36,970 nucleotides of DNA from Chiloscyllium plagiosum (taxonomy: Eukaryota). Location of the stretch: assembly GCF_004010195.1 (NCBI RefSeq), contig NC_057718.1:803608-840577 (forward strand), written 5' to 3'. Each line of letters begins with the position of its first letter. The stretch's first letter is position 1. A program made the translations under genes and the position numbers. The notes below the pieces were generated by a model that saw only the letters and a program-made list of their open reading frames with translations, did not search any database and was not told the DNA's origin. Positions 1 through 36,185 of this stretch are shown here, one piece after another.

Positions 1-18
1 CCCTGCCTTTGCCGCCCC

Positions 19-77
19 CTCTCTGCCTCTCTCTCTCTGTCTCGTTCTCTCTCTCTCTCTCTCTCTGTGACTCTCTC
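19..77. repeat. (CT)n microsatellite, imperfect
   Basis: Direct reading of ctct runs. Confidence 0.85.
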
Positions 78-206
78 ACACTCAGGCTGTGTATCCTGGT
101 AACTGTGTGTAGCACCCAGGCCTGGATGATGTGGCGATTTATTAACTTCCAACTGCGACGATGGAGAGAGTTTCAAGCAGAGCAGGCATCTCGTAGGAAG
201 ATTGTA

Positions 207-220
207 GGCGCCATGGCAAC
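207..220. promoter_or_regulatory. RFX X-box-like site
   Basis: GGCGCCATGGCAAC has a perfect GGCAAC half-site versus consensus GTTGCCATGGCAAC and sits in a locally CpG-rich patch. Confidence 0.45.
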
Positions 221-527
221 GCGAGGCCGGGTCCTCCGCAGGGAACCAGGTCAGTTTGTGGCTGTGGGAGGTTGAGGGGGGAGCTGAGGCAGGTGTGGGT
301 CTGATGGGTTTGTGGGATCACGGCTCAGGTGGGGGTCAGGGAGTTCTGGTTTGGAGTCGGTGAAGGTCAAATGGAACTCAACCTGAGTGTGGGAATGTCG
401 GGGAATGGGTTGCAGTTTTGGGGTCAGCTGGGGTTCAACGGTCAGAATGGGAGTGTGAGGGTTTGGGTGAGGATTGGGGTCAGGGCTCCATGGTCTCTCA
501 GTAACTTCTCCTCTTTCTTTCTCCCAG

Positions 528-541
528 GTCACCATGACAAC
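528..541. promoter_or_regulatory. RFX X-box
   Basis: GTCACCATGACAAC fits the GTHNYY-AT-RRNAAC X-box consensus. Confidence 0.55.
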
Positions 542-1524
542 GGTTTGATCAAATCAGAGAATGGCACATCACCTCGGACTCGAAAATCCAAATCACCCTA
601 AACTCGGCCAGTCAGGGCTGGGAGTCTTTCTGATCACATCACCCCTGCCCCAGGGGGATCAAACTTGGACCTTCAATAATTGTTTCTCATTCACCATTCT
701 TCCCTGAAGCACAGCCCCACCCTCCACTTATTGTGTCCATTTTCCAGTCAGCGCCTCAGTAAACCACGCCCTCCACATTTTATCCAAATCTCTCCCATTT
801 TCCAAATCCTTCCCAGGATCAAAGCATAACTTCATTTCACCATCCCCAATCCATGCCCAATCCTAACTCTTATCCACACACTGGATGAGATCAGTTCAGT
901 GGGTGTAGATTTGGAGATAAAGCCCTGTCCCCTCCCTGCCTCAGAGTGTGGACCACAGCACCATCTTTTTGGCTGATTGGATTAACATGGGTCTCTTTAC
1001 ATGTAAAGTGCATCTGGATATGTGTCAGCATGTACCTCAGCAACTGCCAGTGGTCCTTGGAGGCTCTGTCAGACCCAGAACAGTGTCTCCCAGTGCCCAG
1101 AGTAAGATTTCACAGTGCCCAGAGCTGGGATGAGCCTACCTGATGTCCAGTGTTTATCTGCTGTACTTACAGCTCCCCATGAGCAGCAGTGATTGATGGA
1201 TGACTGCAAATATCAACACCGTGATCCTTACTGTCCTCGCTGTAGGGTGACAGTCGTGTAAGTCTGACTGTAAATAAACATGCAAATTCAACAAGATATC
1301 TTTTTGTGTTCTGTTAATCTTTGAACTTTGTACCTTACACGTTGTGGGAAGGTGTCAGTATTACTTACAGTCCCTCAAGCAGAGTCTGGGAGCCCTGCAG
1401 TGGGCAGATCAGTTGTCTGACAGTTTTGAGAGGAGGGTGCTGTGTTAGTTAAACCACACTGGAGCTGAGATGTACCACTCACTGAAGGATAATCACAGAC
1501 TGCTGGAAGTGTTTCAAATATTAC

Positions 1525-1530
1525 TTTATT
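1525..1530 (-). terminator. Candidate polyadenylation signal of the EFHC1-like gene
   Basis: tttatt on plus = AATAAA on minus, downstream of the TAG at 1636-1638. Confidence 0.6.
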
Positions 1531-1635
1531 CAGTTTGCATTATGTTCCCAATTACAAAGATCATTGTTCCACTTTTGACATCAACAGTTATAATCCCCTA
1601 TATGTATTTTGATCTTGGAGTCCCATGGGAGCACA

Positions 1636-1957
1636 CTAAGGTGTACGGATATCTCCCTGGGACGGTGGTGGGCAGATATCTCTCTGGTGTTGAGGTGTAC
1701 GGATATCTGCCTGGTTCTGAGGTGGGCAGATACCTGCTTGATATTGAGGTGCACTGATATCTGCTTGGTTCTGAGGTATGCGGATATCTCCCTGGGATGC
1801 TGGTGGGCAGATATCTCTATGGTATTGAGGTGTACGGATATCTCCCTGGTTCTGTGGTGGGCAGATACCTGCTTGATATTGAGGTGTACGGATATCTCCC
1901 TGGTTCTGTGGTGGGCAGATATCTTTCTTGTACTGAAGTGTGCGGTTATCTCCCTGG
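1636..1957 (-). repeat. Coding minisatellite: 27-bp subunit, 54-bp higher-order unit, about 12 subunits
   Basis: Plus-strand unit gaggtgtacggatatctccctggttctgtggtgggcagatacctgcttgatatt; the peptide alternates QGDIRTPQY / QAGICPPQN. Confidence 0.92.
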
Positions 1958-2074
1958 GATTGTGCTTTTGATGGTCTCTTGTCAAGAAATTGCCAACATT
2001 CTGATGGCATCGTTACACAGTCCTCGCTGCTCATCTCAGCAGGAGCAAGCTCTGGATCACCAAATGACATAGAG
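1636..2074 (-). CDS. EFHC1: Putative terminal coding exon of the EFHC1-like gene encoding a tandem-repeat tail (145 aa)
   Basis: Strong acceptor (ttttgtttttgttctccAG|C). The phase-2 join with the previous exon (CG|C = Arg) enters the open frame SMSFGDPEL...QGDIRTP-stop. AATAAA lies about 105 nt past the stop. Confidence 0.7.
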
Positions 2075-2149
2075 CTGGAGAACAAAAACAAAATTACAAA
2101 GGAAAAAATGAAACCAGAGCAGGAGTCAGTTTTTCATCCTCTTCAGTTT

Positions 2150-3070
2150 GTGTCACCACAATGCCAGTTCCCATACTATCCCCATATCCCTTGATATCTT
2201 CAATATCTATTGATCTTTGACTTGAATCTACTCAGTGATTGAGCCATCACAGACCCCTGAGGTAGAGATATACCAAATTCAAAGTGAAGACAATCTTCCT
2301 TATCCCAGTCCTCAATGGTTCCCCTCTTATTTTGAGACTGTGCAGTGATAACCTGGGACTTCGATGTTGTGGCATCACAGACCCCTGAGGTAGAGATATA
2401 CCAAATTCAAAGTGAAGACAATCTTCCTTATCCCAGTCCTCAATGGTTCCTCTCTTATTTTGAGACTGTGCAGTGATAATTAAACCTCTTGTGTAGGACC
2501 TTATCAAATCTTGCTGAATTTTAAACTGACATTTCCACCATTTCCCCTCTATCTATTCTCCTGATTAGATATTCACAAAACCCCCAACTGGTTTATTAAA
2601 CAAGATTTCCCTTTCACCAATCCAGAATGACTCTGCCTAATCCTATCATCGTTTTCTCAGTGTTTAATGATACAATTCTTTATCAGTGATTCCAGCATTT
2701 CCCTATCATTGATGTCAGACTGATGAGTCAGTAGTTGTCCATTTTCTATTTTTTTTAAATAGTGTAGTTCATTTGGCATCTTCCAATCTGCAGGAGCCAA
2801 GCAGATTCTGTAGGGTTCTGAAAAGTGAGCCCTCTCTGGGATGTAAATCATTGGGTCCAGGGGATTTATCTCTTTAAAGTCCCATTACTTTCCAAAATAC
2901 TATTCTTTTTACTGTCACTAATATATTTCACTTTGTAATTCTTACTCATCCTGTGGCTCTCACGTATTCCCAGGAGTTTCTTTCTCAGATTAAAATGAAT
3001 AACTTTGTTTCTCTGTCATTCCCTTTCCCCCCATGGTATGTTTTGCTATCCCTGCTTATATTGCATCCAT
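2150..3070 (-). mobile_element. Old, degenerate CR1-type LINE remnants
   Basis: Reverse strand resembles CR1 3' end and RT-region sequence seen elsewhere in the window; many stops. Boundaries approximate. Confidence 0.55.
2245..2479. repeat. Local direct duplication, 107 bp x2 (2245-2351, 2373-2479)
   Basis: catcacagacccctgagg...gtgcagtgataa repeated with about 1 mismatch and a 21-bp spacer. Confidence 0.9.
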
Positions 3071-3104
3071 TTTTGTTCTTTCTAATTTTTTTTACAAACC
3101 AATA

Positions 3105-4180
3105 GCTGAAAGTGTTGGAGAAATTAGTCCGATCTGGAGAGAAAGCAGAATGAACATTTTGTGTCTTGTCCTTCTGAACTGATAACTATTATGACAAGGT
3201 GGTATATACGCTGACGAGACTGATGGAGGTGGAGCCCACTGAGAGAGAGCAACAGTTAGGAGGGAAAGGGATGGCTACTGGTAAGCCAGGGAGAAAGAAA
3301 AGATGATAATGGGAACCATGAGTAGGTGAAAATGGGTGGGCTGTGCTGAAAGAAGCCCATGTCATGACAAGGCCTGATGTGTTGGGATGGGTAAAGGACC
3401 TGAAAGGAGGTGCTCGGGTTCTGAAATTATCGAACTCGATATTGAGTGCGGAGGGCTGCAGGGTCCCCGAGGGGAAGGTGAGGTGCTGTTCTTCCAGCTT
3501 GTGCTGAGCTTCACTGGAGCACTGCAGCCAGCCTGAGACAGAGATGTTGGCCGGGAAACAGGGTGGGGGGGTTACAGTGACAGGGAACTGGAAGCTCAGG
3601 GTCTGTTTTAGAGTCAGAGAGTCTTAGAGATATACAACATGGAAACAGACCCTTCCTTTGCTCCCCCCAGTGTAGGGGAGACCACATTGTGAGCAGCGAG
3701 TGCAGTCGACTAGATTGTGGGAAGGGCTGGGAAAGTGCTGCTTCACCTGGAAGGTGTGTGAAACATTGGATAGTGAGATGGGAGGAAGTATAAAGGCAGG
3801 TGTATCTTCTGTGATTGCAGGACAAAGTGCCATTTGGCTGTGAGGATGTGGTGGTGATGGTGTTGGGAGTGGACCAGGGTGTCATGGAGGAAATGCTAAC
3901 AAGGGAGGGCAATATTTACCTGGTTATGGCATTCTGCTCAGAAATGGCAGCTTATGGTCCTTTAAACGTAGATGCTGCCAGAGTGGAATATGAGGACGGC
4001 GGGGGACCCTACCAGTGTTGTTGGAGGGAAGAGAAGTGCAGGAGGTGGGTCAGACGTGGCGAATGGCCCTGTCGAACAAGGTAGCAGGGAATCCTCAGTT
4101 GAGGAAAAAGTGGACATTTTTGAGAATCCCCTGTGGAATGTGGCATCCAAAACACATGAGATGCAGCTGGAGAAACTAGG
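3105..4180 (-). mobile_element. Penelope-like element 3' part (decayed GIY-YIG endonuclease region and terminal repeat)
   Basis: Minus-strand HNLVDCTRCSQCGLPYTG resembles the PLE motif YCIRCS.CG..YIGET. Shares sequence with the PLEs at 27130-27990 and 6322-6616. Confidence 0.7.
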
Positions 4181-4275
4181 AGAAGGGACTGGAATAGCTT
4201 TTGGATCTGCTTTTATATTTCTTTCCTTTAATCTTTTCACTTAAATCGAGCAGTTAGACTTTGACCACAGAGACA

Positions 4276-4311
4276 GTTAACGTTTCAGGTTCAGTAACCC
4301 TTCTTCAGAAC
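4276..4311 (-). ncRNA. Minimal type I hammerhead ribozyme motif (PLE-type)
   Basis: gtt-CTGAAGA-a-gggtt-actg-aacct-GAA-ACGT-T-aac: intact core, stem I gtt/aac, stem II of 5 bp, palindromic ACGT stem III. Confidence 0.65.
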
Positions 4312-4623
4312 CCATTTATTGCCAGTAGAATCTTGGGGGTTATTATATTCCAAGCTTAGCAATGGAGCTCAGCCTGCAGGCCAGCTGTGTCTGTCTGTGA
4401 GAATTCCTGAGTGCTAGTTACCAGCTAACCAGTCTCGTTCTGTCAAGGAAATAGGTCAGTTCAGGTTGTTTAGACACAGTGAGTGGAGTCAGTGCATTGA
4501 GCTGATTTGATTGAGGTCAGGTTCCTAATTTGGTGAAAGGGCTGTTGCTGAAGCTGCCAGGGCTATATGTCAGAGTCTACACGATAAAATTAAATTGGAA
4601 ATGAAAACAAAGGGATGACTGAC

Positions 4624-4822
4624 CGAGCTTTCTGATCCATCTCCTGTTGAGTCTTGGGGAGGGACTCTTGGACCAGAGACGCCTGGACCATTTGAGCCTT
4701 CCTTTCCTGAGCTTTCTGCTGAAATGAGTCGAGAACTTCACTCGGAAATTCTGCAGCATTCGCTTGCAGGTATTTGTGAACATATTCATCAGCGTCAGTG
4801 ATGATGAAACGGCAACCGAGCA
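4624..4822 (-). CDS. EFHC1: EFHC1-like exon (end of DM10-3 plus tail), 199 nt
   Basis: VLGCRFIITDADEYVHKYLQANAAEFPSEVLDSF... resembles EFHC1 [23 protein letters not shown]. Acceptor polyT-ctccAG, donor CG|GTcagt; phase 1/2. Confidence 0.9.
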
Positions 4823-5189
4823 CTGGAGAAAAAAAAAGGTGAGCAAGGCTGTTGGCACTGACTGAGGCAAAGGAGAAACCATGGATCTGAGATTGAACTG
4901 TAGCCCTGGGAGTATTACATACACAACATAACACACAAGATACAGCACAGAAACAAGCTGTTCAAACAGCTAATCTGTATCGATTTTTAAGCCCCAGTCG
5001 ACTCTTCTCCCATCTTTCCTCATTTAAATACCAACATATCTCTCTACTCCGTTCTCTCTCATCTGTCTCTCCCTTAATGCATCTATACTATGCACTTCAA
5101 TTAAACCCCGGGGGAGCATGTTACACATCGTCAAACATACATTTGTCACAAAACTGGTCCCTTTTTTCTAAAAGCTGTCTCCTTTTTGA

Positions 5190-6616
5190 TGTAGGTTTGC
5201 TCGCTGAGCTGGAAGGTTGGAGGATGGGAGGAGGTGTAATCTAGGTAGCTGTGGGAGTTGGTCGGTTTATAGTAAATGTCCGTGTTGATTCGGTCGCCCG
5301 AGATAGAAATTCGACTGACTGAACTGGTCCTTACCCTGAACAACTCTTTCCAATCCTCCCACTTCCTCCAAACCAAAGGAGTAGCCATGGGCACCCGCAT
5401 GGGCCCCAGCTATGCCTGCCTCTTCGTAGGATATGTGGAACAGTCCATCTTCCACAGCTACACTGGCCCCACCCCCCACCTTTTCCTCCGCTACATCGAT
5501 AACTGTATCTGGGCCGCCTCGTGCTCCCACGAGGAGGTTGAACAGTTCATCCACTTTACCAACACCTTCTACCCCGACCTCAAATTCACCTGGACCGTCT
5601 CAGATTCCTCCCTCCCCTTCCTAGACCTTTCCATTTCTATCTCGGGTGACCAAATTGACACGGACATTTACTATAAACCGACCNNNNNNNNNNNNNNNNN
5701 NNNNNNNNNNNNNNNNNNNNNNNNNNNNNNNNNNNNNNNNNNNNNNNNNNNNNNNNNNNNNNNNNNNNNNNNNNNNNNNNNNNNNNNNNNNNNNNNNNNN
5801 NNNNNNNNNNNNNNNNNNNNNNNNNNNNNNNNNNNNNNNNNNNNNNNNNNNNNNNNNNNNNNNNNNNNNNNNNNNNNNNNNNNNNNNNNNNNNNNNNNNN
5901 NNNNNNNNNNNNNNNNNNNNNNNNNNNNNNNNNNNNNNNNNNNNNNNNNNNNNNNNNNNNNNNNNNNNNNNNNNNNNNNNNNNNNNNNNNNNNNNNNNNN
6001 NNNNNNNNNNNNNNNNNNNNNNNNNNNNNNNNNNNNNNNNNNNNNNNNNNNNNNNNNNNNNNNNNNNNNNNNNNNNNNNNNNNNNNNNNNNNNNNNNNNN
6101 NNNNNNNNNNNNNNNNNNNNNNNNNNNNNNNNNNNNNNNNNNNNNNNNNNNNNNNNNNNNNNNNNNNNNNNNNNNNNNNNNNNNNNNNNNNNNNNNNNNN
6201 NNNNNNNNNNNNNNNNNNNNNNNNNNNNNNNNNNNNNNNNNNNNNNNNNNNNNNNNNNNNNNNNNNNNNNNNNNNNNNNNNNNNNNNNNNNNNNNNNNNN
6301 NNNNNNNNNNNNNNNNNNNNNACCTTGTCTCAGTCCCAACCCTCGAACTCAGCACCACCTTCCTAACCTGCAATCTTCTTCCTGACCTCTCCGCCCCCAC
6401 CCCTCTCCGGCCTATCACCCTCACCTTAACCTCGTTCCACCTATCGCATTCCCAACGCCCCTCCCCCCAAGTCTCTCCTCCCTACCTTTTATCTTAGCCT
6501 GCTTGGCACACTTTCCTCATTCCTGAAGAAGGGTTTATGCCTGAAACATTGATTATCCTGCTCCTTGGATGCTGCCTGACCTGCTGCGCTTTTCCAGCAA
6601 CACTTTTTCAGCTCTG
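5190..6616 (+). mobile_element. Penelope-like element (RT fragment, gap, 3' terminal repeat) with an inverted 5' segment, nested in the Gypsy element
   Basis: QTKGVAMGTRMGPSYACLF, FLRYIDN, FLDL, TDIYYKPT are PLE RT motifs. The 3' end has a hammerhead-like core at 6520-6553. Spans the gap at 5684-6321. Confidence 0.85.
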
Positions 6617-7142: not shown

Positions 7143-8160
7143 TTGCCTGTTGGGTATAGAAAGGAGGTGCTGCGAGTGGCCGATGAGCTACCACCTGGAG
7201 GTCATTCAGGGGTGAGGAAAACACGGCTAAAATACAAAGACATTATTACTGGCCTGGCCTACACAAAGATTTTTCCAAACATGTCATACATGTCAGCTAA
7301 TTGGAAAACTACCGGCATAATAAAACCTGCACTTTTATTCCCTATTCCAACATTTGAGGAACCTTTCACAAGTCTTGATTGATTGTGTAGATCCTCTACC
7401 TCAAACAAAAAGTGGGAATGAGTAATTATTAACTGTAATGGATATGTCGACTAGATTTCCAGAGACAATCCCATTACACAATATCATAGCTAAAAGGGTT
7501 GTAGAAGAAATACTTAAATTTTTTTTTGATACAGACTGCTAATAGAGATCTAGTCAGATCGAGGATCAAACTTCACATCCAAATTATTCAAGGTAGTTGT
7601 GGATAAGTTGGGAATGTGTACCATCCAGTATCGCAGGGGGCTAGAGAGGTGGCATCAAACATTAAAGACCATGCTGAGGGCTTATGGTCAGGATTATCCA
7701 GATGACTGGGATAAGGAAGTTCTGTTTGTACTGTCTGCGATCAGAGATGCACCGAATGAATCGACCAAATTCAGTCCGTTTGAATTAATTTTTGGGCATG
7801 AAGTAAGAGGATCGTTAAGATTGAGTAAGGAGAAATTAATAAATCAGAATTCACAGACCATCTATGTGGACTATGTGTCAAATTTTAGAGAACAATTAAA
7901 TAGAGCTGGAGGGTTAGCTAGGCAGCATTTAAAAGTATCACAGCATACAATGAAACAGGAAGCAGATAAAAAATCAAAAATTCACAATTTTGCAATTGGG
8001 AATGAGGTATAGATGTTACTTCCAGTGACAGGTTAACCTAAAAAGCAAGGTTTAGTGGATCTTGTCAAATTGGGAAGACATTGAGTGAGGTGAACTACCT
8101 CATCAGGACTCCAGTCAGGAAGAAATCTCACAAAGTGTGTGTCATGTGAATATGCTGGAA
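7143..8160 (+). pseudogene. Integrase remnant of the Gmr1-type element
   Basis: GGHSGVRKT, DCVDPLP..KSGN, MDMSTRFPE, SDRGSNFTS, GLERWHQTLKTML, FSPFELIFGHEVRG; stops and frameshifts. Confidence 0.88.
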
Positions 8161-8399
8161 AGGTATTTTGATAGGGAAGGAAAGCAAGAGGAGAAGGTGT
8201 CAATGATTACAGCACAGAAGTAAGAACCATGTTCAGAGGAATCTGAATTGGACATTCCTCAGATCAGATTGGACAATGAGGAAGTTGTCAAAAATTGGGA
8301 TAAATTATTGAGTTACCTTCCACAAGAAAATCAAAATGACCTGAAAGAGTTATTACTATCACATGGGGCAATATGTGGAAATAAACTGGGAAGTATTAA

Positions 8400-9677
8400 C
8401 CTAATTGTGCATGACGTAGAGATAGGAGATGCTGTTCTGATTAAGCAACATCCTCATAGCTATAACCCTCTAAAGTTGGCACAGGTTCAGAAGGAGTCAG
8501 AGTGCATGCTCCAAGATGGCATAATCAAAGTGAGTTACAGTGACTGGAGCTCACCCAGAGTCATGGTGCCAAAGCCAGATGGTACCCAATGGTTAGTTGT
8601 GGTCTATCGCAAAGTCAACACCGTTACAAAGACTGATGCATATCCAATTCCATGGTTGGAGGATTAGCTCAAAAAAGTGGGATAAGCAACTTACATTTCT
8701 AAGTTATACTTGCTCAGAGGCTAATGGCACATACCTCTGTCAGAGAGAGCAAAGGCAATTTCAGCTTTTGTAAAGCCAAATGACTTTATCAGATCATGAT
8801 TGTGCCATTTGGAATGAAAAATGCTCCAGCCACATTTCAGAGACTGACTAATAAGGTATTGCCGGATTACCCAACTGTTGGTGTATATTGATGACCTGGT
8901 GATTTTTAGTCACTCGTGGAAGGAACATTTACAGCATTTATCAGACTTGTTCGATCGACTTTGGAACGCAAACTTGGTAAACCGAGCTAAAAGTGAATTT
9001 GCCAAAGCCCAAGTCACCTTCCTAGGCCAAGTTGATGGACATGGACAAATGGCCCCACAGGATGCAAAAATGAAAGTAAATTGGGAATTTCCCACACCGT
9101 CAACAAAAAAGCAGCACCAACATTCCTGGGGTTGAGTGGATTTTACCGAAAGGTTGTGCTGAACTTTAACAGTGTGGCTGCTCCACTCACCGAATTGTTA
9201 AAGAAGGGTAAGAAGTTTCAGTGGACAGCAGACTGTCAAAAGGCATTTGACAGCCTAAAAACTGTGTTAACCACTGCCTCAGTATTAGCCACGCTAGATT
9301 ACACAAAGGTGGCTATCAATGCCAGTGATGTGGGTGTCAGTGCAGTGCTTGTGCAGGAGGATGATGACGGGATAGAAAGACCCATCGGGTATTTTTCCAG
9401 GAAGTTGAACGTTCGTCAACAGAAATATTCAACGGTGCAAAAAGAGACTTTAAACTTGGTGTTGGCATTACAACATTTCAGTGTTTGTATTACTAGCAAT
9501 GCATCTGAGACAATCGTATACACTGATCATAACCCATTGACATTTGTGGAAGAATTTAAGGACAAAAATGCCAGACTGTTTAGATGGAGCTTGTTGTTGC
9601 AGCCGTTCAGTTTGACAATTGTGCAGGTGGCAGGTCACGAAAACGTGATTGCTGATGCATTATCGAGACACAAATGA
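8400..9677 (+). pseudogene. RT and RNase H remnant of the Gmr1-type element
   Basis: SDWSSP..MVPKPDG, YRKVN, PFGMKNAPATFQRL, YIDD; RNase H NASDVGVSAVL, TDHNPL, NVIADALSR. Confidence 0.9.
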
Positions 9678-12289: not shown

Positions 12290-15200
12290 CATCCTGCGTT
12301 GACTGTGCCTCTTATGGAGCTCATCTTTTATGCTGAATGCCGTTCGCGTTCAGAAAATACTTGAATAACTTGTGAGTAAGTGATGGCCTGTTGCTTGTGA
12401 CCAACACTTCCGGGAGCCTGTGAATTGTAAAATGGTGCTTGCAACTTTTCAATTATCATCCCAGAGTTTGACGAATGAACTGTATGTGATGCACATTCAA
12501 AGTGATTGGACGTGCAATGACCGAGAACATTAAGCCCATGAAAGGACTGGTATAGATGATGTGTAACAGAGTCCAGGGTTTACCTGGCTGGCACAGTGGG
12601 GGAGCTGCTGCTGTAATGCAGCAATGTCAACATCCAATCCTAACCATCAGACAAGCATTCTTACCAACAGCTCCATTTTGGAAATTCCTGGTGGAGTTCA
12701 GCCAGTATCTGGCAGCGACCTTTGCTCAGGATAATAACTCTTCCTCCTCAAATACAAAATGCCACCTCAACGGTGATCGGGTCTCGCTGTGTCCAGAAAG
12801 CTTTCAATTCTGGTTGTGATTAGCTTTGACTTGTCCCATCACCACCAGCTGTTTTAGTTTTGCCAGGACTGGATCCTTTTGTCCCCACAGTCTGATATGG
12901 TCAGTGCTGAGTGGAAGGGTGTCCAGAAAGTATAAAACCAGATGGTGGTGTATCTGCTAGTAGGAGGCAGCTCAAGGCACCATATTTCCTACTTGGCCTC
13001 CCAGGCAGTGTCCCACCTTATAATTGTACACACTGACATTGAGAGTCCACTGCTGGATTTGACCTGAAGCTATGACCGCCTTATCCTCTTTGATCATCCC
13101 GAGCAGGGGAACGTTACAAATTTACATCCATTAAAAAATGCTATTGATGGAACCTTCTCACATTGAAAATAACGACCAAAGCTGCCTTCTCGAGCTTGAC
13201 GTATTTACCATCTGCATCAGGCAAAGTCTGGGAAGCATTTGCTGTTGGGCCATCTGGGAGGTACACGACCCTGATACCGTATGGAGAGGTATTTCACGTC
13301 AGCTCCAGATCTCACTTGAGTTTAGAATGTGCCAACAACTTAGACAATACCAGCTGCTTTCTCACTTCCCTAAAGGCTAATTCTGGGCTCTGAGACCATT
13401 TCCAAGGCTGCCCCTTTCTCAGATGTAAGGCAACCAGGATGGAGGCCAGACTAGGTATGGACTTTTCATAATAATTCACCAACTCAAGGAAAGACCAAAG
13501 CTTCTGTAGAGATACGGGAGCTGGGGCAACTTTGATTACCCTAATTTTATCTTCCAACAGCTGTTTATCTGGTTTTGAGAACTGTGTAGCCCAGGTAGCC
13601 CATTTCCCCCCTCAGGCAAATGCCTGCCTTGGGGTAGACCATCTAAACTGTTCCCCATCATCCATAGAAAAATAGCACACGCTGATGAAACCCCAAATGG
13701 CAGCCTCGTATATTTGTACAAACCCTTATGGGAATTAACTTTTGCATATTTCTGGGAATCCCCATCTAACTGCAATTGGAGATACGCATGATTTATATCC
13801 AGCTTCCTGAAGGACAGCTCCCACCACCAGCTTTATGTATCAGTTCTCTATGCGAGGGGTTGGGTATTTATCCAGCTGTGAAAAGGTGTTTACTGTTTGT
13901 TTAAAATCCCCACAAAGACGAACCAGCCATCGGGTTGCACTATCAGTACAATCGGTGCTGCCCATTTATAAACTGTACAGTTTGATGATTCCCTCGTTTT
14001 CCAGTCATAGAGTCAGAGCGAGGTACAGCACGGAAACACACTCTTCAGTCCAACTCGACCATGCTGACCAGATATCCCAACCTAATCTAGTCCCATTTTC
14101 CAGCACTTGGCCTGTATCTCTCTAAACCCTTCCTATTCATATACCCATCCATTTAAATGTTGTAATTGTACCAGCCTCCACCATTTCCTCTGGCAGCTCA
14201 TTCCACACACGCACTACCCTCTGAATGAAAAAGTTTCCCCTTAGGTCCCTTTTATATCTCTCCCCTCTCACCTTAAACCTATGCTCTCTAGTTCTGGACT
14301 CCCCCATGCAAAGGAAAATATCTTGTCTATTTATCCTATCCATGCCCCTCATGCTTTTGTAAACCTCTATAAGATCACCCCTCAATCTCCGACGCTCCAG
14401 GGATAACTGCCCCAGCCTGTTCAGACTCTCCATGTGGCTCAGATCCTCCAACCCTGGCAATATGCTTGTTTTTTCTGCACCTTTTCAAGTTTCACAACAT
14501 CCTTCCTGTAGCAGGGAGATCAGAATTGCACATAATATTCCAAAAGTAGTCTAATCAATGTCCTGTACAGCTGCAGCATGACCTCCCAACTCCTGTACTC
14601 AACGCTCTGTCCAATAAAGGAAAGCATACCAAACTGCCACTCCTCAGCCCATTGGCCCATCTGATCAAGATCCCATCGTACTCTGAGGTAACCTTCTTTG
14701 GTGTCCACTACACCTCCAATGTTGGTGTCATCCGCAAACTTACTAACTGTACCTCCTATGTCCATATCCAAATCATTTATATAGATGATGAAAAGCAGTG
14801 GACCCAGCACTGAGCCTTGTGGCATACCATTGGTCACAGGCCTCCAGTCTGAAAAACAACCCTCCACCATCACCCTCTGTCTTCTCCCTTTGAGACAGTT
14901 CTGTATCCAAATGGCTAGTTCTTCCTGTATTCCAAGAGATTTAACCTTGCTAACCAGTCTCCCGTGGGGAACCTTGTTGAATGCCTTACTGAAGTCCATA
15001 TAGATCATGTCCACCGCTATGCCCTCATCAATCCCCTTTGTTACTTCTTCAAAAAATTCAACCAAGCTACTGAGACTTCTGATTTCTGCCTCCATTTTTG
15101 CCAGTAAGGAAAATGGCATAAAGCAGGCCTTGCAGAGTCATGGTCAACAAACAAGGTGGCTTTGGCTCCATTGACAACCCTTAAACCTTCCTGAAAAATA

Positions 15201-16669: not shown

Positions 16670-16883
16670 CTTCAACAATTGAGCAGATGGCCAGATCCTT
16701 GGCTGTATAAAATTCTGGGTTTTCCACATTGGTTCCTGGTTTGGGAATCCTTATCTTTGATAAAACTCTTCCTCCTATTCTCCCAGAGTTCCGGATTGGA
16801 GGTTCAAAGATGCTGATCTCATCAGTGGCCACGTGGAAGCTGAGGATAAAACGTCGATTCCAGTCATCAGGATTCCTGGACTC
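16670..16883 (-). CDS. EFHC1: EFHC1-like exon (DM10 domain 3), 214 nt
   Basis: ESRNPDDWNRRFILSFHVATDEISIFEPPIRNSGRIGGRVLSKIRIPKPGTNVENPEFYTAKDLAICSIVE contains the DM10 motif ISIFEPP.RNSG.IGG. Acceptor ctgcAG, donor GAAG|GTaaaa; phase 0/1. Confidence 0.95.
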
Positions 16884-17423
16884 CTGCAGCCAAGACAGAG
16901 AGCAGTGCACTTAATAAGAGGGCTTAATACTTGTTAGCACAGACCCTCAGAATAGACTCACCCCTCTTTCCCTCTTAACCTGGCCTCCACTGCGAGTACA
17001 GCCCACCCAACTGGCAACTTAGTCCTGCCCTGTGCCCACTCCCTGTACTCTTGTCTCTGTGTCTCAACTCTCCCTGTGACACCCCCAACCCCATGTTCCC
17101 TGTCTCCTGCCCTTTCCTCTGTCTTGCCCTGTACTGCCTCCTCTAACGTGCCTCACTGATCCACCTTATTCTTCCCCTCTCTTTCTGTGTACCGTGGTTT
17201 AATGAAATGCAATCCCACCCTTTGTGTACTGGCAGGCTTGCCGTACTCATGTAGCATTTGCTGTAAATGCCTTTATGTGCAGTCAGAGAGAGTCATTAAA
17301 CACATCACTTGAAACATGGTGCAGCTAAAAATGTGTAAATTTTCACAGCAGTAAGGAAGTCAGCTTCTGAAACAAAACAGCAAAGAAGGAGTAGGAAACC
17401 TGGTCAGCATGGACAAAAATAAT

Positions 17424-19567: not shown

Positions 19568-19710
19568 CTAGAGTGCAGTAAGAGGCCATTCTGCCCATTG
19601 TGTCTGCAGTGACCTTCTGAAGAACATCCCACCCAGACTCACCCTATCATCATAACTCCCATTTCCCATGGCCAAATCAACCGGAACTGCACATGTTTGA
19701 ACTGTGGGAG
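19568..19710 (-). mobile_element. SINE 3' portion running directly into the minisatellite
   Basis: Colinear with SINE copy 23430-23630 up to cacat.ttt.gactgtgggagg. Confidence 0.65.
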
Positions 19711-21628
19711 GGAGGGACACACACACACACATGTTTGAACTGTGGGAGGGAGGGACACACATGTTTGAACTGTGGGAGGAAGGGACACACACACACACAC
19801 ATGTTTGAACTGTGGGAGGAAGGGACACACACAAACATATTTGAACTCTGGGAGGGAGAGACACACACACATGTTTGTACTGTGGGAGGGAGGGACACAC
19901 ATGTTTGAACGATGGGAGGGAGGGACACACACACATGTTTGAACTGTGAGAGGGAGGGACACACACACACATGGTTGAACTGTGGGAAGGAGGGACACAC
20001 ATGTTTGAACAGTGAGAGGGAGGGACACATGCACTCATGCTTGAACTGTAGGAGGGAGGGACACACATGCTAGAACTGTGGGAGGGAGGGACACACACAT
20101 GTTTGAACTGTGGGAGGAAGGGGCACACACACACACATGTTTGAACTGTGAGCAAGAGGGACACACACATGTTTGAACTGTGGGAGGGAGGGACACACAC
20201 ACACACATGTTTGACCTGTGGGAGGGAGGGACACACACACATGTTTGAACTGTGGGAGGGAGGGACACACACATGTTTGAACTGTGGGGGGGAGGACACA
20301 CACACATGTTTGAACTGTGCGAGGGAGGGACACACACACACATGTTTGAACTGTGGGAGGGAGGGACACACACATGTTTGAACTGTGGGGGGACACACAC
20401 ACACACATGTTTGAACTGTGAGCAGGAGGGACACACACACACATGTTTGACCTGTGGGAGGGAGACACATGTTTGAACTGTGGGAGGGAGGGACACAGAC
20501 ATGTTTGAACTATGGGAGGAAGGGACACACACACACATGTTTGAACAGTGAGAGGGAGGGACACATACACTCATGCTTGAACTGTAGGAGGGAGGGACAC
20601 ACACATGCTTGAACTGTGAGCGGGAGGGACACACACACATGTTTGAACTGTGGGTAGAATGGACACACACATGTTTGAACTGTAGGAGGGAGGGTCACAC
20701 ACACATGTTTGAACTGTGGGAGGGAGGGACACACACATGTTTGAACTGTGGGAGGGAGGGACACACACACACATGTTTGAACTGTGGGAGGGAGGGACAC
20801 ACACACACATGCTTGAACTGTGGGAGGGAGGGACACACACACATGTTTGAACTGTGGGAGGGAGGGACAACATGTTTGAACTGTGGGAGGGAGGGACACA
20901 CACACACATGCTTGAACTGTGGGAGGGAGGGACACACACACATGTTTGAACTGTGGGAGGGAGGGACACACATGCTTGAACTGTGGGAGGGAGGGACACA
21001 CACACACATGCTTGAACTGTGGGAGGGAGGGTCACACACACATGTTTGAACTGTGGGAGGGAGGGACACACACATGCTTGAACTGTGGGAGGGAGGGACA
21101 CACACACACATGTTTGAACTGTGGGAGGGAGGGACACACACACATGTTTGAACTGTGGGAGGGAGGGACACACATGTTTGAACTGTGGGACGGAGGGACA
21201 CACACATGTTTGAACTGTGGGAGGGAGGGACACACACACACATGCTTGAACTGTGGGACGGAGGGACACACACATGTTTGAACTGTGGGAGGGAGTGACA
21301 CACACACGTTTGAACTGTGGGAGGGAGGGACACACATACATGTTTGACCTGTGGGAGGGAGAGACACATACACACACGTTTGAACTGTGGGAGGGAGGGA
21401 CACACATACATGTTTGAACTGTGGGAGGGAGGGACACACACACACACAAGTTTGAACTGTGGGAGGGAGGGACACACACACACACATGTTTGAACTGTGG
21501 GAGGGAGGGACACGCACACACGTTTGAACTGTGGGAGGGAGGGACACACATACATGTTTGACCTGTGGGAGGGAGAGACACATACACACATGTTTTAACT
21601 GTGGGAGGGAGGGACACACACATGTTTG
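19690..21628 (+). repeat. Minisatellite, about 30-40 bp unit atgtttgaactgtgggagggagggac(ac)n
   Basis: Dozens of tandem copies with a variable (CA)n tract. Confidence 0.97.
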
Positions 21629-21732
21629 ATCAGAGTCGAGAGTGTGGTGCTGGAAAAGCACAGCAGGTCAGGCAGCATCCGAGGGGCAGGAGAATCGATG
21701 TTTCGAGCAAAAGTCCTCCATCAGGAATGAGA
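21629..21732 (-). mobile_element. Penelope-derived mini-fragment with a degenerate hammerhead
   Basis: Same family as 10094-10222; core CTGATGG...GAAACATC. Confidence 0.75.
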
Positions 21733-22103: not shown

Positions 22104-22800
22104 CGTGTGTGTGTGTCCCTCCCTCCCTCCCACAGTTCAAACACGTGTGTGTCCCTCCCTCCCACAGTTCAAACATGTGTGTGTCCCTCCCTCCCACAGT
22201 TCAAACATGTGTGTGTGTGTGTCCCTCCCTCCCACAGGTCAAACATTAGTGTGTGTCCCTCCCTCCCACAGTTCAAACATGTGTGTGTGTCCCTCCCTCC
22301 CACAGTTCAAACGTATGTGTGTGTGTCCCTCCCTCCCACAGTTCAAACGTGTGTGTGTGTGTGTGTCCCTCCCTCCCACAGTTCAAACATGTGTGTGTCC
22401 CTCCCTCCCACAGTTCAAACATGTGTGTGTCCCTCTGTCCCACAGTTCAAGCATGCGTGTGTCCCTCCCTCCCACAGTTCAAACATGTGTGTGTGTGTCC
22501 CTCCCTCCCACAGTTCAAACGTGTGTATGCGTCCCTCCCGCTCACAGTTCAAACATGTGTGTGTGTGTCCCTCCTGCTCACAGTTCAAACATGTGTGTAT
22601 GTCCCTCCCTCCCACAGTTCTAGCATGTGTGTGTGTGTCCCTCCCTCTCACAGTTCAAACGTGTGTGTGTGTCCCTCCCTCCTACAGTTCAAACGTGTGT
22701 GTGTGTCCCTCCCTCCTACAGTTCAAACATGTGTGTGTGTCCCTTCCTCCCACAGTTCAAACATGTGTGTGTGTCCCTTTCTCCCACAGTTCAAACGTGT
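22104..22800 (-). repeat. Inverted array of the same minisatellite
   Basis: Unit (gt)n-ccctccctcccacagttcaaacat is the reverse complement of the 19690-21628 unit. Confidence 0.97.
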
Positions 22801-23032
22801 GATCTCCTTATATTTTTTTCTCCCTAATTTGTTTTTTTCTCTATAAAGGAACAAAAAAAACCCTAAAAACACAAAACTAAAAAAGAAAATCAGAAGGCAA
22901 ATGTCTCCTTATTCAAGGAGACCCTCTTCCTCCTTACAGTTACACTGGCTGTGGCCATTCAGCTCAGAGTCAGTCACCCAAACCAAGGAGATTATAATCT
23001 GGTTATATTCTTTTCTCCCTAATCTGGTTATA

Positions 23033-24244: not shown

Positions 24245-24931
24245 NNNNNNNNNNNNNNNNNNNNNNNNNNNNNNNNNNNNNNNNNNNNNNNNNNNNNNNN
24301 NNNNNNNNNNNNNNNNNNNNNNNNNNNNNNNNNNNNNNNNNNNNNNNNNNNNNNNNNNNNNNNNNNNNNNNNNNNNNNNNNNNNNNNNNNNNNNNNNNNN
24401 NNNNNNNNNNNNNNNNNNNNNNNNNNNNNNNNNNNNNNNNNNNNNNNNNNNNNNNNNNNNNNNNNNNNNNNNNNNNNNNNNNNNNNNNNNNNNNNNNNNN
24501 NNNNNNNNNNNNNNNNNNNNNNNNNNNNNNNNNNNNNNNNNNNNNNNNNNNNNNNNNNNNNNNNNNNNNNNNNNNNNNNNNNNNNNNNNNNNNNNNNNNN
24601 NNNNNNNNNNNNNNNNNNNNNNNNNNNNNNNNNNNNNNNNNNNNNNNNNNNNNNNNNNNNNNNNNNNNNNNNNNNNNNNNNNNNNNNNNNNNNNNNNNNN
24701 NNNNNNNNNNNNNNNNNNNNNNNNNNNNNNNNNNNNNNNNNNNNNNNNNNNNNNNNNNNNNNNNNNNNNNNNNNNNNNNNNNNNNNNNNNNNNNNNNNNN
24801 NNNNNNNNNNNNNNNNNNNNNNNNNNNNNNNNNNNNNNNNNNNNNNNNNNNNNNNNNNNNNNNNNNNNNNNNNNNNNNNNNNNNNNNNNNNNNNNNNNNN
24901 NNNNNNNNNNNNNNNNNNNNNNNNNNNNNNN

Positions 24932-31982: not shown

Positions 31983-32203
31983 CTTTTTCTCTGGTGGTGC
32001 AGGTTTCTTGATGACATCAACGGGATGAAGCTCCACCCCCCTAATGTTCTGGTAAAAGTAATTCTTTGTGAACTCATCACAGTCATAGATGAAGAATTCA
32101 CGGTCAAGAAGAGTGACAGATTGACCAACAATGAAATCCCGTGGACCACACCATTCCTTCACCTCCTGGTCAGACATCTCCATTGAGATCGACGGGAAGG
32201 TTG
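31983..32203 (-). CDS. EFHC1: EFHC1-like exon (end of DM10 domain 2 and linker), 221 nt
   Basis: Translates TFPSISMEMSDQEVKEWCGPRDFIVGQSVTLLDREFFIYDCDEFTKNYF...PPEKK, resembling vertebrate EFHC1 ([38 protein letters not shown], from memory). Acceptor tctgtAG, donor AAG|GTttgc; phase 1 in, phase 0 out. Upstream exons lie outside the window or in the gap. Confidence 0.92.
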
Positions 32204-32269
32204 CTACAGAGGCAGGGACAGAAAAACAATGTGTGAGAGGGAGGTAATGACCATCAATGGGACTCAGAG

Positions 32270-33224
32270 CTATATCCCCAGTGAGAGTCAGTGCCTGGGG
32301 AACACCATACCCCAGTGAAAGTTAGTAAGTATATGACCAAAACCCAGTGAGAGTCGGTGTGTGTGGGACTGTACCTCAGTGAGAATCAGTGTGTGGGGGA
32401 CTATACCCCAGTGAGAGTCGGTGTGTGTGGGACTGTACCTCAGTGAGAATCAGTGTGTGTGGGGCTGTACCCCAGTGAGTGTCAGTGTGTGGGGGACTAT
32501 ACCCCAGTGAGAATCAGTGTGTGTGGGGCTGTACCCCAGTGAGTGTCAGTGTGTGTGGGACTGTACCCCAGTGAGTGTCAGTGTGGGTGGGACTATACCC
32601 CATTGAGGGTCAGTGTGTGTGGGGCTGTACATCAGTAAGAGTCAGTGTGTGTGGGACTGTACCCCAGTGAGAGTCAGTATGTGTGTGGGACTGTACCCCA
32701 GTGAGTGTCAGTGGGTGTGTGGGACTGTACCCCAGTGAGTGTCAGTGTGTGTGGGACTGTATCCCAGTGAGAATCAGTGCGTGTGGGACTATACCGCAGT
32801 GAGAGTCAGTGTGTGTGGGACTGTACCCCAGTGAGAATCAGTGCGTGTGGGACTATACCCCAGTGAGAGTCAGTGTGTGTGTGGGACTGTACCCCAGTGA
32901 GTGTCAGTGTGTGTGGGACTGTACGGCAGTGAGTGTCAGTGTGTGTGGGACTGTGCCCCAGTGAGAGTCCGTGTGTGTGGGATTTTACCCCAGTGAGAGT
33001 CAGTGTGTGTGGGACTGTACCCCAGTGAGAATCAGTGTATGTGGCACTGTACCCCAGTGAGTGTCAGTGTGTGTGGGACTGTACCCCAGTGAGAATCAGT
33101 GTGTGAGTGACTATACCCCAGTGAGAGTCAGTGTGTGTGGGACTATACCCCAGTGAGAGTCAGTGTGTGTGTGGCACTGTACCCCAGTGAGAATCAGTGT
33201 GTGTGGGACTATACCCCAGTGAGA
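32270..33224 (+). repeat. Minisatellite, about 28-30 bp unit gtgtgtgtgggactgtaccccagtgagagtca
   Basis: More than 30 tandem copies running into the gap at 33225-33724. Confidence 0.97.
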
Positions 33225-33724
33225 NNNNNNNNNNNNNNNNNNNNNNNNNNNNNNNNNNNNNNNNNNNNNNNNNNNNNNNNNNNNNNNNNNNNNNNNNNNN
33301 NNNNNNNNNNNNNNNNNNNNNNNNNNNNNNNNNNNNNNNNNNNNNNNNNNNNNNNNNNNNNNNNNNNNNNNNNNNNNNNNNNNNNNNNNNNNNNNNNNNN
33401 NNNNNNNNNNNNNNNNNNNNNNNNNNNNNNNNNNNNNNNNNNNNNNNNNNNNNNNNNNNNNNNNNNNNNNNNNNNNNNNNNNNNNNNNNNNNNNNNNNNN
33501 NNNNNNNNNNNNNNNNNNNNNNNNNNNNNNNNNNNNNNNNNNNNNNNNNNNNNNNNNNNNNNNNNNNNNNNNNNNNNNNNNNNNNNNNNNNNNNNNNNNN
33601 NNNNNNNNNNNNNNNNNNNNNNNNNNNNNNNNNNNNNNNNNNNNNNNNNNNNNNNNNNNNNNNNNNNNNNNNNNNNNNNNNNNNNNNNNNNNNNNNNNNN
33701 NNNNNNNNNNNNNNNNNNNNNNNN

Positions 33725-35399: not shown

Positions 35400-35800
35400 C
35401 TTTAACCCCTCATGCCCCCCCATCCAAGTACCTTTCAGGTGATTTGTATTTCTTTCAATTAACTCCCTTTATCTAGTCCAATGTATTTGCTATTCACAAT
35501 GAGACCACGTAATTGAGTTAGAGGGTTTTGATTGATAATGGGATCAAGGGTTGTGGGGAGAAGGCAGGAGAATGGGGTTTAGAAACATAGCCATGATTGA
35601 ATGGTGGGCAGACTCAGTGGGCCCAATGGCTTAATTTTCCTGCTATATTTTATGGTCTCATAGTCTCTTTACATTGAGGAGACCAAACCTTGACTGTGTG
35701 ACCACTTTGCAGAACACCTCCACACTGTCTATAAGAATGAACCCAACTTCTGGTTATGGCTATTTCAATAAACTGCCTTGCTGCCGTCACTACCACTTCC
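35400..35800 (+). mobile_element. Decayed PLE GIY-YIG fragment split by a CR1 tail
   Basis: YIEETK...DHFAEHL remnant near 35670-35720; CR1-type tail at about 35505-35660. Confidence 0.45.
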
Positions 35801-36185
35801 ACCCTGATCTCACTGCAGTGTCCCAGCAAGGAGGATCAAATGTACCACTTCTTTCACTTAAATGCAGTTTATTGATAAGACTCAATATTAAGTTAAGATG
35901 TTACTACAGTTGTTATAGGGGATTTCAACATACAGGTAGACTGGGAGAATCAGGATAGTATTGGACCTCAAGAAAGAGACTTTGTGGAACCACTTCCACC
36001 CTGATCTCACTGCAGTGTCCCAGCAAGGAGGATCAAATGTACCACTTCTTTCACTTAAATGCAGTTTATTGATAAGACTCAATATTAAGTTAAGATGTTA
36101 CTACAGTTGTTATAGGGGATTTCAACATACAGGTAGACTGGGAGAATCAGGATAGTATTGGACCTCAAGAAAGAGACTTTGTGGA
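35792..36185. repeat. Exact tandem duplication, 197 bp x2
   Basis: 35792-35988 appears identical to 35989-36185. Confidence 0.92.

Follow-up and report, generated by a model that had tools for sequence, protein, structure and literature searches.

EFHC1, of the Rib72 family, is among the best-studied microtubule inner proteins, and proposals that the inside of the doublet senses calcium usually start from its EF-hand. A locus of the shark Chiloscyllium plagiosum raises the question of what such a protein ends in when no EF-hand is found behind its core, and of what the sequence in that place might do. We analyzed a stretch of 36,970 nucleotides (nt), henceforth the window, which spans positions 803,608 to 840,577 of the forward strand of contig NC_057718.1 (C9). 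An initial annotation, made from the letters alone, had proposed that an EFHC1-like gene on the minus strand of the window ends in a tandem-repeat tail instead of the EF-hand. Our results identify minus-strand positions 2074-1636 as a real exon: this shark has one EFHC1 ortholog, a member of the Rib72 family, and its coding sequence constitutively ends there. We are highly confident in the joint claim that the exon and its splice are real, that the exon is present across the clade of sharks and rays, that an EF-hand exon was not found, that the tail is predicted to be disordered, and that its repeat array is weakly constrained. Gene features are given below in the direction of transcription, on the minus strand unless stated.

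The last exon and the gene it belongs to

The penultimate coding exon (4822-4624, 199 nt) encodes the end of the third DM10 domain and a helical linker, matches residues 497-558 of human EFHC1, and contains no in-frame stop. It ends in ..GCT CG directly before the donor GTCAGT at 4624, in phase 2 (two codon bases). The last intron (4623-2075, 2549 nt, GT..AG) leads to a strong acceptor, TTCTCCAG followed by C (in the longer stretch, TTTGTTCTCCAG followed by C), and the terminal exon starts at 2074. Its coding part (2074-1636) consists of one base that completes CGC (Arg), 145 tail codons, and a TAG at 1638-1636. An open frame alone is no evidence in this exon, because the array is equally open in its two remaining minus-strand frames and in one plus-strand frame; it is the splice that fixes the frame. 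The plus-strand open reading frame (ORF) at 1594-1971 matched no Pfam family.

The in-frame splice from 4624 to 2074 had been predicted by the initial annotation, which called for a transcript check, and the junction is present in spliced contigs of two relatives. These come from runs X1 and X2, taken from two other, related organisms, with one junction contig each. The joint between 2074 and 4624 skips 2549 nt, the ends of which read CT..AC on the plus strand and GT..AG on the minus strand. The X1 contig has 1022 letters at a depth of 30.7, with 183 letters in the tail exon, and the X2 contig has 1931 letters at a depth of 42.7, with 180 letters in the tail exon. Both cover 4624-4824 and then run into further upstream exons. 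Across the unique bins of the last intron, the depth was 0 in X2 and about 1-20 in X1, compared with 30.7 in the exons. The run X6, labeled as the window's own species and DNA-like in behavior, covers all 30 bins and lacks the joint between 2074 and 4624. A single-cell poly(A) run of raw reads (X9) had 0 reads on the whole stretch and hence gives no test of the junction.

In the spliced frame, ...EMDQKAR-SMSFGDPELAPAEMSSEDCVTMPSECWQFLDKRPSKAQS, 39 unique residues precede the array; such a unique stretch had been described, with a count of about 38. This proximal part includes P-S-E-C-W-Q (2007-1990), the local form of the motif P-x-E-C-x-Q that is invariant in elasmobranchs. The nonapeptide array follows at 1956-1639, and its 318 nt make up 11 full 27-nt units plus 21 nt (11.8 units), in register without indels. 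The units alternate between QGDIRTPQY-like and QAGICPPQN-like forms, in line with the earlier description of about 12 alternating 9-residue units that keep the 27-nt phase. Tandem Repeats Finder placed the period-27 array at 1648-1957, with 11.5 copies, 1% indels, and higher-order periods of 54 and 135; the autocorrelation of the tail peptide peaked at lags of 18, 27, and 9. There are 7 cysteines in the 145 residues of this tail and 6-11 in other tails. The DNA of the tail exon is single-copy in the genome, as judged by a search that skips simple repeats, and an origin of the array from a dispersed minisatellite or transposon is for this reason unsupported.

The stop and an AATAAA at 1530-1525 lie where they had been noted. 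The 3' untranslated region (UTR) extends over 1635-1505, the poly(A) site near 1505 being putative and taken from the initial annotation. Contig coverage of the UTR comes from X1 over 1578-1693 only, and 1505-1577 is covered by no RNA-like run. Immediately after the TAG, 1635-1581 is the untranslated vestige of an ancestral C-terminal cap. It reads CAPMGLQDQNTYRGL and a stop in frame, and ..GDYNC and a stop in another frame. The bases after the TAG read CAPMGLQDQNTYR, compared with CVPNGLQDQSTYK in the whale shark, with the ancestral ..YNC end shifted by one frame. The vestige aligns to the ends of the whale shark and zebra shark proteins, (Q)CVP(N/T)GLQDQST(Y/F)(K/Q)NYNC, with the TAG opposite their Gln, and the 45 nt after the TAG still encode a recognizable remnant of the cap.

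Three further EFHC1 exons lie upstream in the window. The first (32203-31983, 221 nt) encodes the last part of the second DM10 domain together with the linker behind it; it was located by tblastn against residues 306-386 of the relative P0002 and is bordered by the acceptor CTCTGTAG at 32204 and the donor GTTTGC after 31983. It is the most upstream EFHC1 exon present on C9. The second (26751-26611, 141 nt, AG/GT borders) is 100% identical to residues 68-114 of the public model P0123, and the third (16883-16670, 214 nt) contributes the core of the third DM10 domain, where Pfam matched DM10 at C9:820278-820496 (window 16671-16889, expectation value (E) 1.5e-13). Human EFHC1 exons 6-8 presumably have the same lengths of 221, 141, and 214 nt, as stated in the initial annotation. 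The window exons together with the tail exon, translated from an internal start codon at 32183, are letter-for-letter identical to P0123 (397 residues, 'EFHC1-like'). The gene model was therefore already public, under a name that promises an EF-hand. In the penultimate exon, the X1 contig lacks 15 nt near window position 4667, and shark models from outside the hemiscylliids lack the matching SLVQE, from which it follows that the window lineage has an in-frame, duplication-like insertion of five residues in the helical linker.

That the gene is EFHC1, as first proposed, is supported by solved structures. When the exon of the third DM10 domain (DM10-3) was compared with the PDB, EFHC1/Rib74 gave the best matches (residues 421-497, E 2e-26 to 1e-21), and EFHC2 matched at 4e-18 or weaker. 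The other three-DM10 gene of the genome is a separate EFHC2 locus on contig C12. With one EFHC1 and one EFHC2 in the genome, and with the tail as the sole 3' end in the 23 elasmobranch models described below, the earlier view that the tailed form is a lineage-specific isoform or paralog can be set aside. The gene encodes three DM10 domains in a row (Pfam PF06565). The third is complete in the window, and the second is represented there by its end; the other exons lie on contigs C16 and C80953, with 91-96% identity to P0002. The full-length relatives P0001, P0002, P0008, and P0005 have 3 DM10 stretches each. The gene is thus split over three contigs, with residues 1-193 on C16:69204850-69206087, residues 189-304 on C80953 (an unplaced contig of 2.9 kb), and residues 305 to the end on C9, where the 40 kb upstream of the window contained no EFHC1 exon. 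This split, which is probably a scaffolding error or gap, is why P0123 is partial and starts at an internal Met.

The 3' end of EFHC1 in sharks, rays, and other animals

We compared 23 elasmobranch EFHC1 models from 16 named species (11 sharks and 5 rays) and one further protein. The set was assembled through a search with the DM10-3 exon (which returned seven proteins, all elasmobranch EFHC1), a cluster look-up, and two further searches. The comparison set consists of 113 non-elasmobranch EFHC1 models (P0009-P0121), which are among the 120 listed of 1765 matches. P0102 carries the name of a progestin receptor and is probably a read-through with the neighboring gene.

The repeat tail was found in every elasmobranch model, 23 in total, of which 9 are isoform models from 4 species. 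Because it is the only 3' end in any of them, we regard it as the constitutive end of the ortholog in sharks and rays. All 23 carry P-x-E-C-x-Q, which is absent from the 113 others. Six tail columns are invariant among 16 aligned models (P275, E277, C278, Q280, C305, and P307 in the numbering of P0123). The array consensus QGDIxxPQ(Y/N) is common to galeomorph and squalomorph sharks and is present in degenerate form in rays. Past the motif, tails measure 46-207 residues and have a dominant period of 9, 18, or 27 according to species; these differences between lineages point to separate expansions and homogenisation. No holocephalan (chimaera) EFHC1 was present among the 120 listed of 1765 matches or among 6 short matches. 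A full-text literature search, judged by titles, returned no publication on the elasmobranch EFHC1 tail.

We looked for an EF-hand in both the proteins and the genome. Pfam detected DM10 domains only, and no EF-hand, in four of four elasmobranch proteins tested, and it detected EF-hand_7 at residues 579-639 of the turtle control. A custom hidden Markov model (HMM) built from 14 EF-hand C-termini was run on 135 EFHC1 models; it matched 70 of them, and none of the 22 from elasmobranchs. The tail was also considered as a diverged EF-hand, a candidate rejected by profile-profile comparison (hhalign probability 0.1%). We searched the window and 60 kb downstream of the gene (C9:743608-803607) by tblastn with 68 EF-hand C-termini, and the best match (E 0.04) lies in a satellite. 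This satellite (L012:1000-3450, or C9:764600-767050) encodes NCVSS(V/A)IELCFLSYRTVFPQLQ-type repeats in minus-strand frames and gave the best spurious EF-hand matches; those at L012:1341-2996, inside its NCVSS..LSYRTVFPQL repeats, were rejected. Genome-wide, the turtle EF-hand region had a best E of 0.38 with no match on C9, and with the whole turtle protein as query 16 exons were matched, none of them to residues 565-641, in a stricter first look that may miss weak matches. Pfam analysis of the 150 longest of 222 downstream ORFs (at least 62 residues) returned reverse-transcriptase and endonuclease domains only. As the initial annotation had reported, no EF-hand exon was found by tblastn between 4623 and the start of the window, and a wider check of the kind that it advised, run with turtle sequence, found neither EF-hand exons nor a second paralog in the assembly.

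The initial annotation took vertebrate EFHC1 to end in an EF-hand. This holds for amniotes and a lungfish, and EF-hands are also present in a sea urchin and molluscs. It does not hold for all vertebrates, as 43 of the 113 non-elasmobranch models are likewise without an EF-hand, among them frogs, salamanders, caecilians, the coelacanth, gar, bowfin, tunicates, and some short isoforms of reptiles and a monotreme. Published work describes Tetrahymena RIB72B as having no EF-hand (PMC6254578; PMC8742875) and C. elegans EFHC-1 as having none and keeping two DM10 domains only (PMC6392500); one of these papers assigns the EF-hand to the Rib72 family 'in many cases', not universally (PMC6254578). A C-terminal Ca2+-binding EF-hand was not found in elasmobranch EFHC1, and this does not remove the protein from the EFHC1/Rib72 family, because the family has accepted members without it. 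The elasmobranch speciality is the replacement of the EF-hand, not its loss. Kinship of the tail with the alternative short end of the coelacanth protein was tried and rejected (BLASTP E 2.5).

The initial annotation had called the tail probably disordered, and two kinds of prediction agree. AlphaFold2 was run with 131 sequences on the close relative P0002, which is 96% identical to the window model over the shared part. The blocks of ten residues bearing the three DM10 domains mostly had a predicted local distance difference test score (pLDDT) of 80-94, and the linker after DM10-3 was predicted to be helical (residues 526-565). The stretch 563-799 starts about three positions ahead of the first tail-exon residue; its pLDDT values were 30-39, and no secondary structure was predicted for it. 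A run on P0123 with 16 sequences gave a mean pLDDT of 36 throughout, including the DM10 part, and was discarded as uninformative. In a charge-hydropathy plot, six of six tails fell on the disordered side, and six of six bodies and the turtle EF-hand region fell on the folded side.

Searches for relatives of the tail found none outside elasmobranch EFHC1 in Pfam, the PDB, the ESM Atlas, or the inspected matches among representative proteins. There were 0 matches at E ≤ 10 by phmmer against all PDB chains and no usable match in the ESM Atlas. Against 1.84 billion representative proteins, phmmer gave 70 matches at E ≤ 0.001, of which 22 were inspected. Two of these belong to elasmobranch EFHC1 (P0138 and P0145), a group to which the already known P0008 also belongs, and the other 20, AHNAK-like and other tandem short-repeat proteins, were rejected as compositional or periodic likeness.

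What the tail may do

Our best explanation as a whole is that the tail exon is a constitutive EFHC1 exon, that it replaced the EF-hand, and that it encodes a docking tail; we put the probability of this reading at roughly 0.65. In the common ancestor of sharks and rays, two EF-hand-coding 3' exons would have been replaced by one exon. This exon would have encoded, in order, a short linker, the motif P-x-E-C-x-Q-(F/L), nonapeptides of the type Q-G-D-I-x-x-P-Q-(Y/N), and a Cys-containing cap (..PQC.P.GP..), and its nonapeptide array would have expanded, contracted, and homogenised separately in each lineage. EFHC1 would still occupy protofilaments A01-A05 of the A-tubule lumen, now without a Ca2+-binding module of its own. 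In published work, EFHC1 is placed in the lumen of the A-tubule on A01-A05, in alternation with EFHC2 (PMC8595878), and the C-terminal domain of RIB72 is anchored at protofilament A05 (PMC8742875); the A-tubule location is established there for the bovine, Chlamydomonas, and Tetrahymena proteins (PMC8595878; PMC8742875). For the shark protein we infer a luminal location, because the DM10 domains are conserved, as well as a docking role and the loss of Ca2+ sensing. The C-terminus of the shark protein would be near A05, and this is where the tail would emerge from the third DM10 domain as a disordered, fast-evolving extension.

Within this scheme, the invariant motif and, less so, the regular Pro, Tyr, and Cys residues of the units might dock onto luminal proteins or the tubulin wall, a suggestion that we offer tentatively and regard as rather doubtful when taken by itself. 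The array would for the most part be a tolerated spacer of variable length. A more ambitious version, which we think improbable, would make the tail a new luminal microtubule-binding module that threads the A-tubule from A05 and contacts successive tubulins or tektin-bundle proteins. If this module existed, the clade would have swapped Ca2+-dependent regulation of EFHC1 for a brace of cilia and sperm flagella that is tunable by copy number.

The main rival is that the tail is translated but functionless: a downstream stretch would have been captured as the terminal exon after the loss of the EF-hand, as in many other lineages, of its EF-hand exons, and its minisatellite-like array would change through slippage, its disorder making it tolerable. 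We consider this less probable than not by a clear measure, and it is nevertheless the alternative to be taken most seriously. Many of the observations that weigh against the docking tail are the ones that favor this rival. The units of the window array vary evenly over codon positions (4/7/5 and 6/4/5), without a third-position excess, and their ratio of nonsynonymous to synonymous change (pN/pS) is about 0.6. In the unique tail, nonsynonymous and synonymous differences from the relatives number 7:4 in X1 (11 of 14 differences listed) and 3:3 in X2. The divergence of the X1 tail (14/183 nt) is not below that of the intron pieces that could be aligned (60/1061, a figure biased low by a 90% cut-off). 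Identity of the proximal tail is 0.71 compared with 0.93 for the body between the window and the zebra shark, 0.29 compared with 0.70 between the window and the manta, and 0.77 compared with 0.95 between manta and stingray; around the motif, sequence change is three to five times as fast as in the body. The spread in length, from 46 to 207 residues, and the minisatellite-rich locus also fit a functionless tail, as do the amphibian, bowfin, and tunicate EFHC1 models that stop shortly after DM10-3, from which nothing beyond DM10-3 seems to be required.

Frame and end of the tail are likewise less stable than the docking tail would lead one to expect. A congener model, P0124 (801 residues), reads the distal array in the +2 frame of the window (RYLPTTEPGRYPYTSISS...), with a score of 609 compared with 94 for the true frame, and its end is in yet another frame. 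This frameshift neither truncates nor flags the model, because all frames of the array are open. Two isoform models of Mobula hypostoma are frameshifted over their last ~18 residues, and the cap is removed by a stop in both the window and the Hemiscyllium model. These frameshifts and stops may be real changes or assembly errors. The window TAG sits where five other shark genera have Gln (..TPQC..), and the truncation of the cap reads as a lineage-specific change from CAG to TAG that is common to the window and the Hemiscyllium model. The initial annotation had named frameshifts in the repeat of related species as grounds for giving up its proposal. The tail and the motif are present in 23 of 23 elasmobranch models, and P0124, which reads most of the array in another frame, partly bears out that concern.

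Two more points against the docking tail lie in the data. The RNA nature of runs X1 and X2 is a guess on record. Runs of N cover 1,825 bases of the window (5684-6321, 24245-24931, and 33225-33724) and, in the downstream 60,000 bases (L009-L014), roughly 19,000, or about one third; they limit any statement of absence, and EF-hand exons could lie in them.

Four observations speak against a tail without function. P-x-E-C-x-Q is invariant in 23 of 23 models although its flanks fall to 29% identity. The consensus QGDIxxPQ(Y/N) is found in both galeomorph and squalomorph sharks and is recognizable in rays. The ray tails are degenerate and show no recent homogenisation, and between families they are nonetheless colinear and in frame. 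Finally, no elasmobranch model has simply lost the exon.

Another explanation keeps a function for the tail and places it in the cysteines. Spaced one per 18 residues, and joined by those of the motif and the cap, they could pair in disulfide bonds and so stiffen the long sperm flagellum of elasmobranchs, which fertilise internally. The 6-11 cysteines per tail, the invariance of C278 and C305, and the further Cys of the ancestral cap are consistent with such a brace, and EFHC1 is presumably present in sperm doublets, which we take from the titles of the matched PDB entries. However, the Cys of the units are not conserved: Pristiophorus mostly has QGDIPTPQY without Cys, several ray units are without it, and the cap Cys has been lost in the window lineage. 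We therefore think a disulfide brace quite unlikely.

Alternative 3' ends are less probable still. An EF-hand isoform could exist beside the tailed one, with exons farther downstream, masked or unassembled, or used in unsampled tissues. The masked third of the downstream 60 kb leaves room for such exons, the assembly is fragmented, with exons 1-5 on two other contigs, and some amniotes have annotated short EF-hand-less isoforms beside long ones (such as echidna X2, with 547 residues, compared with 641 in the platypus). Nevertheless, no EF-hand isoform occurs among the 23 models from 16 named species, which derive from independent assemblies and include the 9 isoform models; the genome-wide and turtle-protein searches described above found no EF-hand exon; and the 150 downstream ORFs scanned gave retroelement domains only. 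We consider this explanation very improbable.

Least credible of all is a prediction artefact in which the exon is a 3' UTR or part of a non-productive transcript: the array is open in each of its three frames and predictors would always extend an ORF, but the splice fixes the frame, the exon before it (4822-4624) has no stop, the first in-frame stop past the junction is the one at 1638-1636, so that any translation of the spliced mRNA includes the tail, and the motif is conserved across the clade in the frame that the splice sets.

Surrounding repeats, significance, and known systems

The introns of the gene are rich in repeats. A very abundant dispersed repeat occupies 3408-3779 in the last intron, with a summed contig depth of 528,000 in X6 and 30,000-64,000 in X1 and X2. 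Rearranged joints are numerous there, and the repeat is probably SINE-like (short interspersed nuclear element). An Rfam search of window positions 1-5600 found nothing. Near-perfect tandem duplications of 128 nt (2245-2479, in the last intron) and 197 nt (35792-36185) were observed. Intronic minisatellites at 19690-21629, 22120-22801, and 32343-33224 have units of 32-36 nt in up to 57 copies; the second array is the reverse complement of the first, and they give long spurious ORFs in several frames. Retroelement fragments lie in introns at 9036-9677 (plus strand), 14523-15137 (minus), 7554-8667 (plus), and 5276-5680 (plus), and include an RNase H-like domain of reverse transcriptase (E 6e-28) and RVT_1 (E 1e-17). 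Integrase-like and reverse-transcriptase-like intron ORFs had no Pfam match at E ≤ 0.001.

A whole vertebrate clade, represented by 16 named shark and ray species, appears to have exchanged the EF-hand of EFHC1 for a disordered repeat tail of 60-240 residues with one invariant motif. This weakens general claims that EFHC1 acts through Ca2+ binding. It also provides structural biology with a natural test case, namely the path of a long disordered tail in the crowded A-tubule lumen and the partner of its motif. For annotation, we note that the name 'EF-hand domain-containing protein 1' is borne by proteins without an EF-hand, and that frameshifted models such as P0124 slip through.

Two known systems resemble the tail in their repeats. 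The C-terminal domain (CTD) of Spt5 (PF12815) is also built of nonapeptides, with Thr-Pro and Gly, and it gave weak Pfam matches (E 0.0014-0.31). It was rejected as a homolog, since the scores of 18.3 bits for the window tail, 19.5 for P0008, and 12.0 for P0001 are all below the curated 25.4, and its protein context and cell compartment are different. We take the likeness as periodic and compositional, not as homology. A Pfam scan of the tail at E ≤ 1 returned only this family and CR4_N, both below cut-off. The short repeats Mn (MAP6/SAXO), PYG (FAM166/CIMIP2, FAP129), and GFG (EFHB, CFAP77) are described as lumen-binding modules of inner proteins (PMC10973386). By analogy, the shark tail shares with them tandem short units with an aromatic residue, Pro, and Gly (P-Q-Y-Q-G) and a place on a luminal-wall protein. 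Unlike these modules, its units have 9 residues instead of about 31 and a far more variable copy number, and any contact with tubulin would be by analogy. Their signatures (a P-Y-G loop that follows a short helix, a G-F-G unit of ~31 residues, and the Mn unit) were not detected in the tail by Pfam at E ≤ 1 or by phmmer against the PDB, whose doublet structures contain these proteins, and the tail has no predicted helix.

The closest comparison is with EFHC1 itself. Amniote and invertebrate EFHC1/Rib72/Rib74 proteins have three DM10 domains and a C-terminal pair of EF-hands and are inner proteins of the A-tubule (PDB 7RRO chain T, 7UNG chain T, and 8SNB chain 7G). The shark protein is their ortholog by best match, its relatives have three DM10 domains, and it has a helical linker after DM10-3. 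In contrast to amniote EFHC1, the last ~85 residues with the EF-hand pair were not found, and in their place stands a tail, predicted to be disordered, of 145 residues here and up to ~240 in relatives. Keeping the DM10 core while the Ca2+ module is missing is a feature that the shark protein shares with Tetrahymena RIB72B, C. elegans EFHC-1, and the amphibian, bowfin, gar, coelacanth, and tunicate models, and the existence of such family members shows that a Rib72-type protein can do without the EF-hand. These EF-hand-less relatives end 20-60 residues past DM10-3 or earlier, whereas a long repeat tail with a conserved motif is seen only in elasmobranchs (0 of 113 others).

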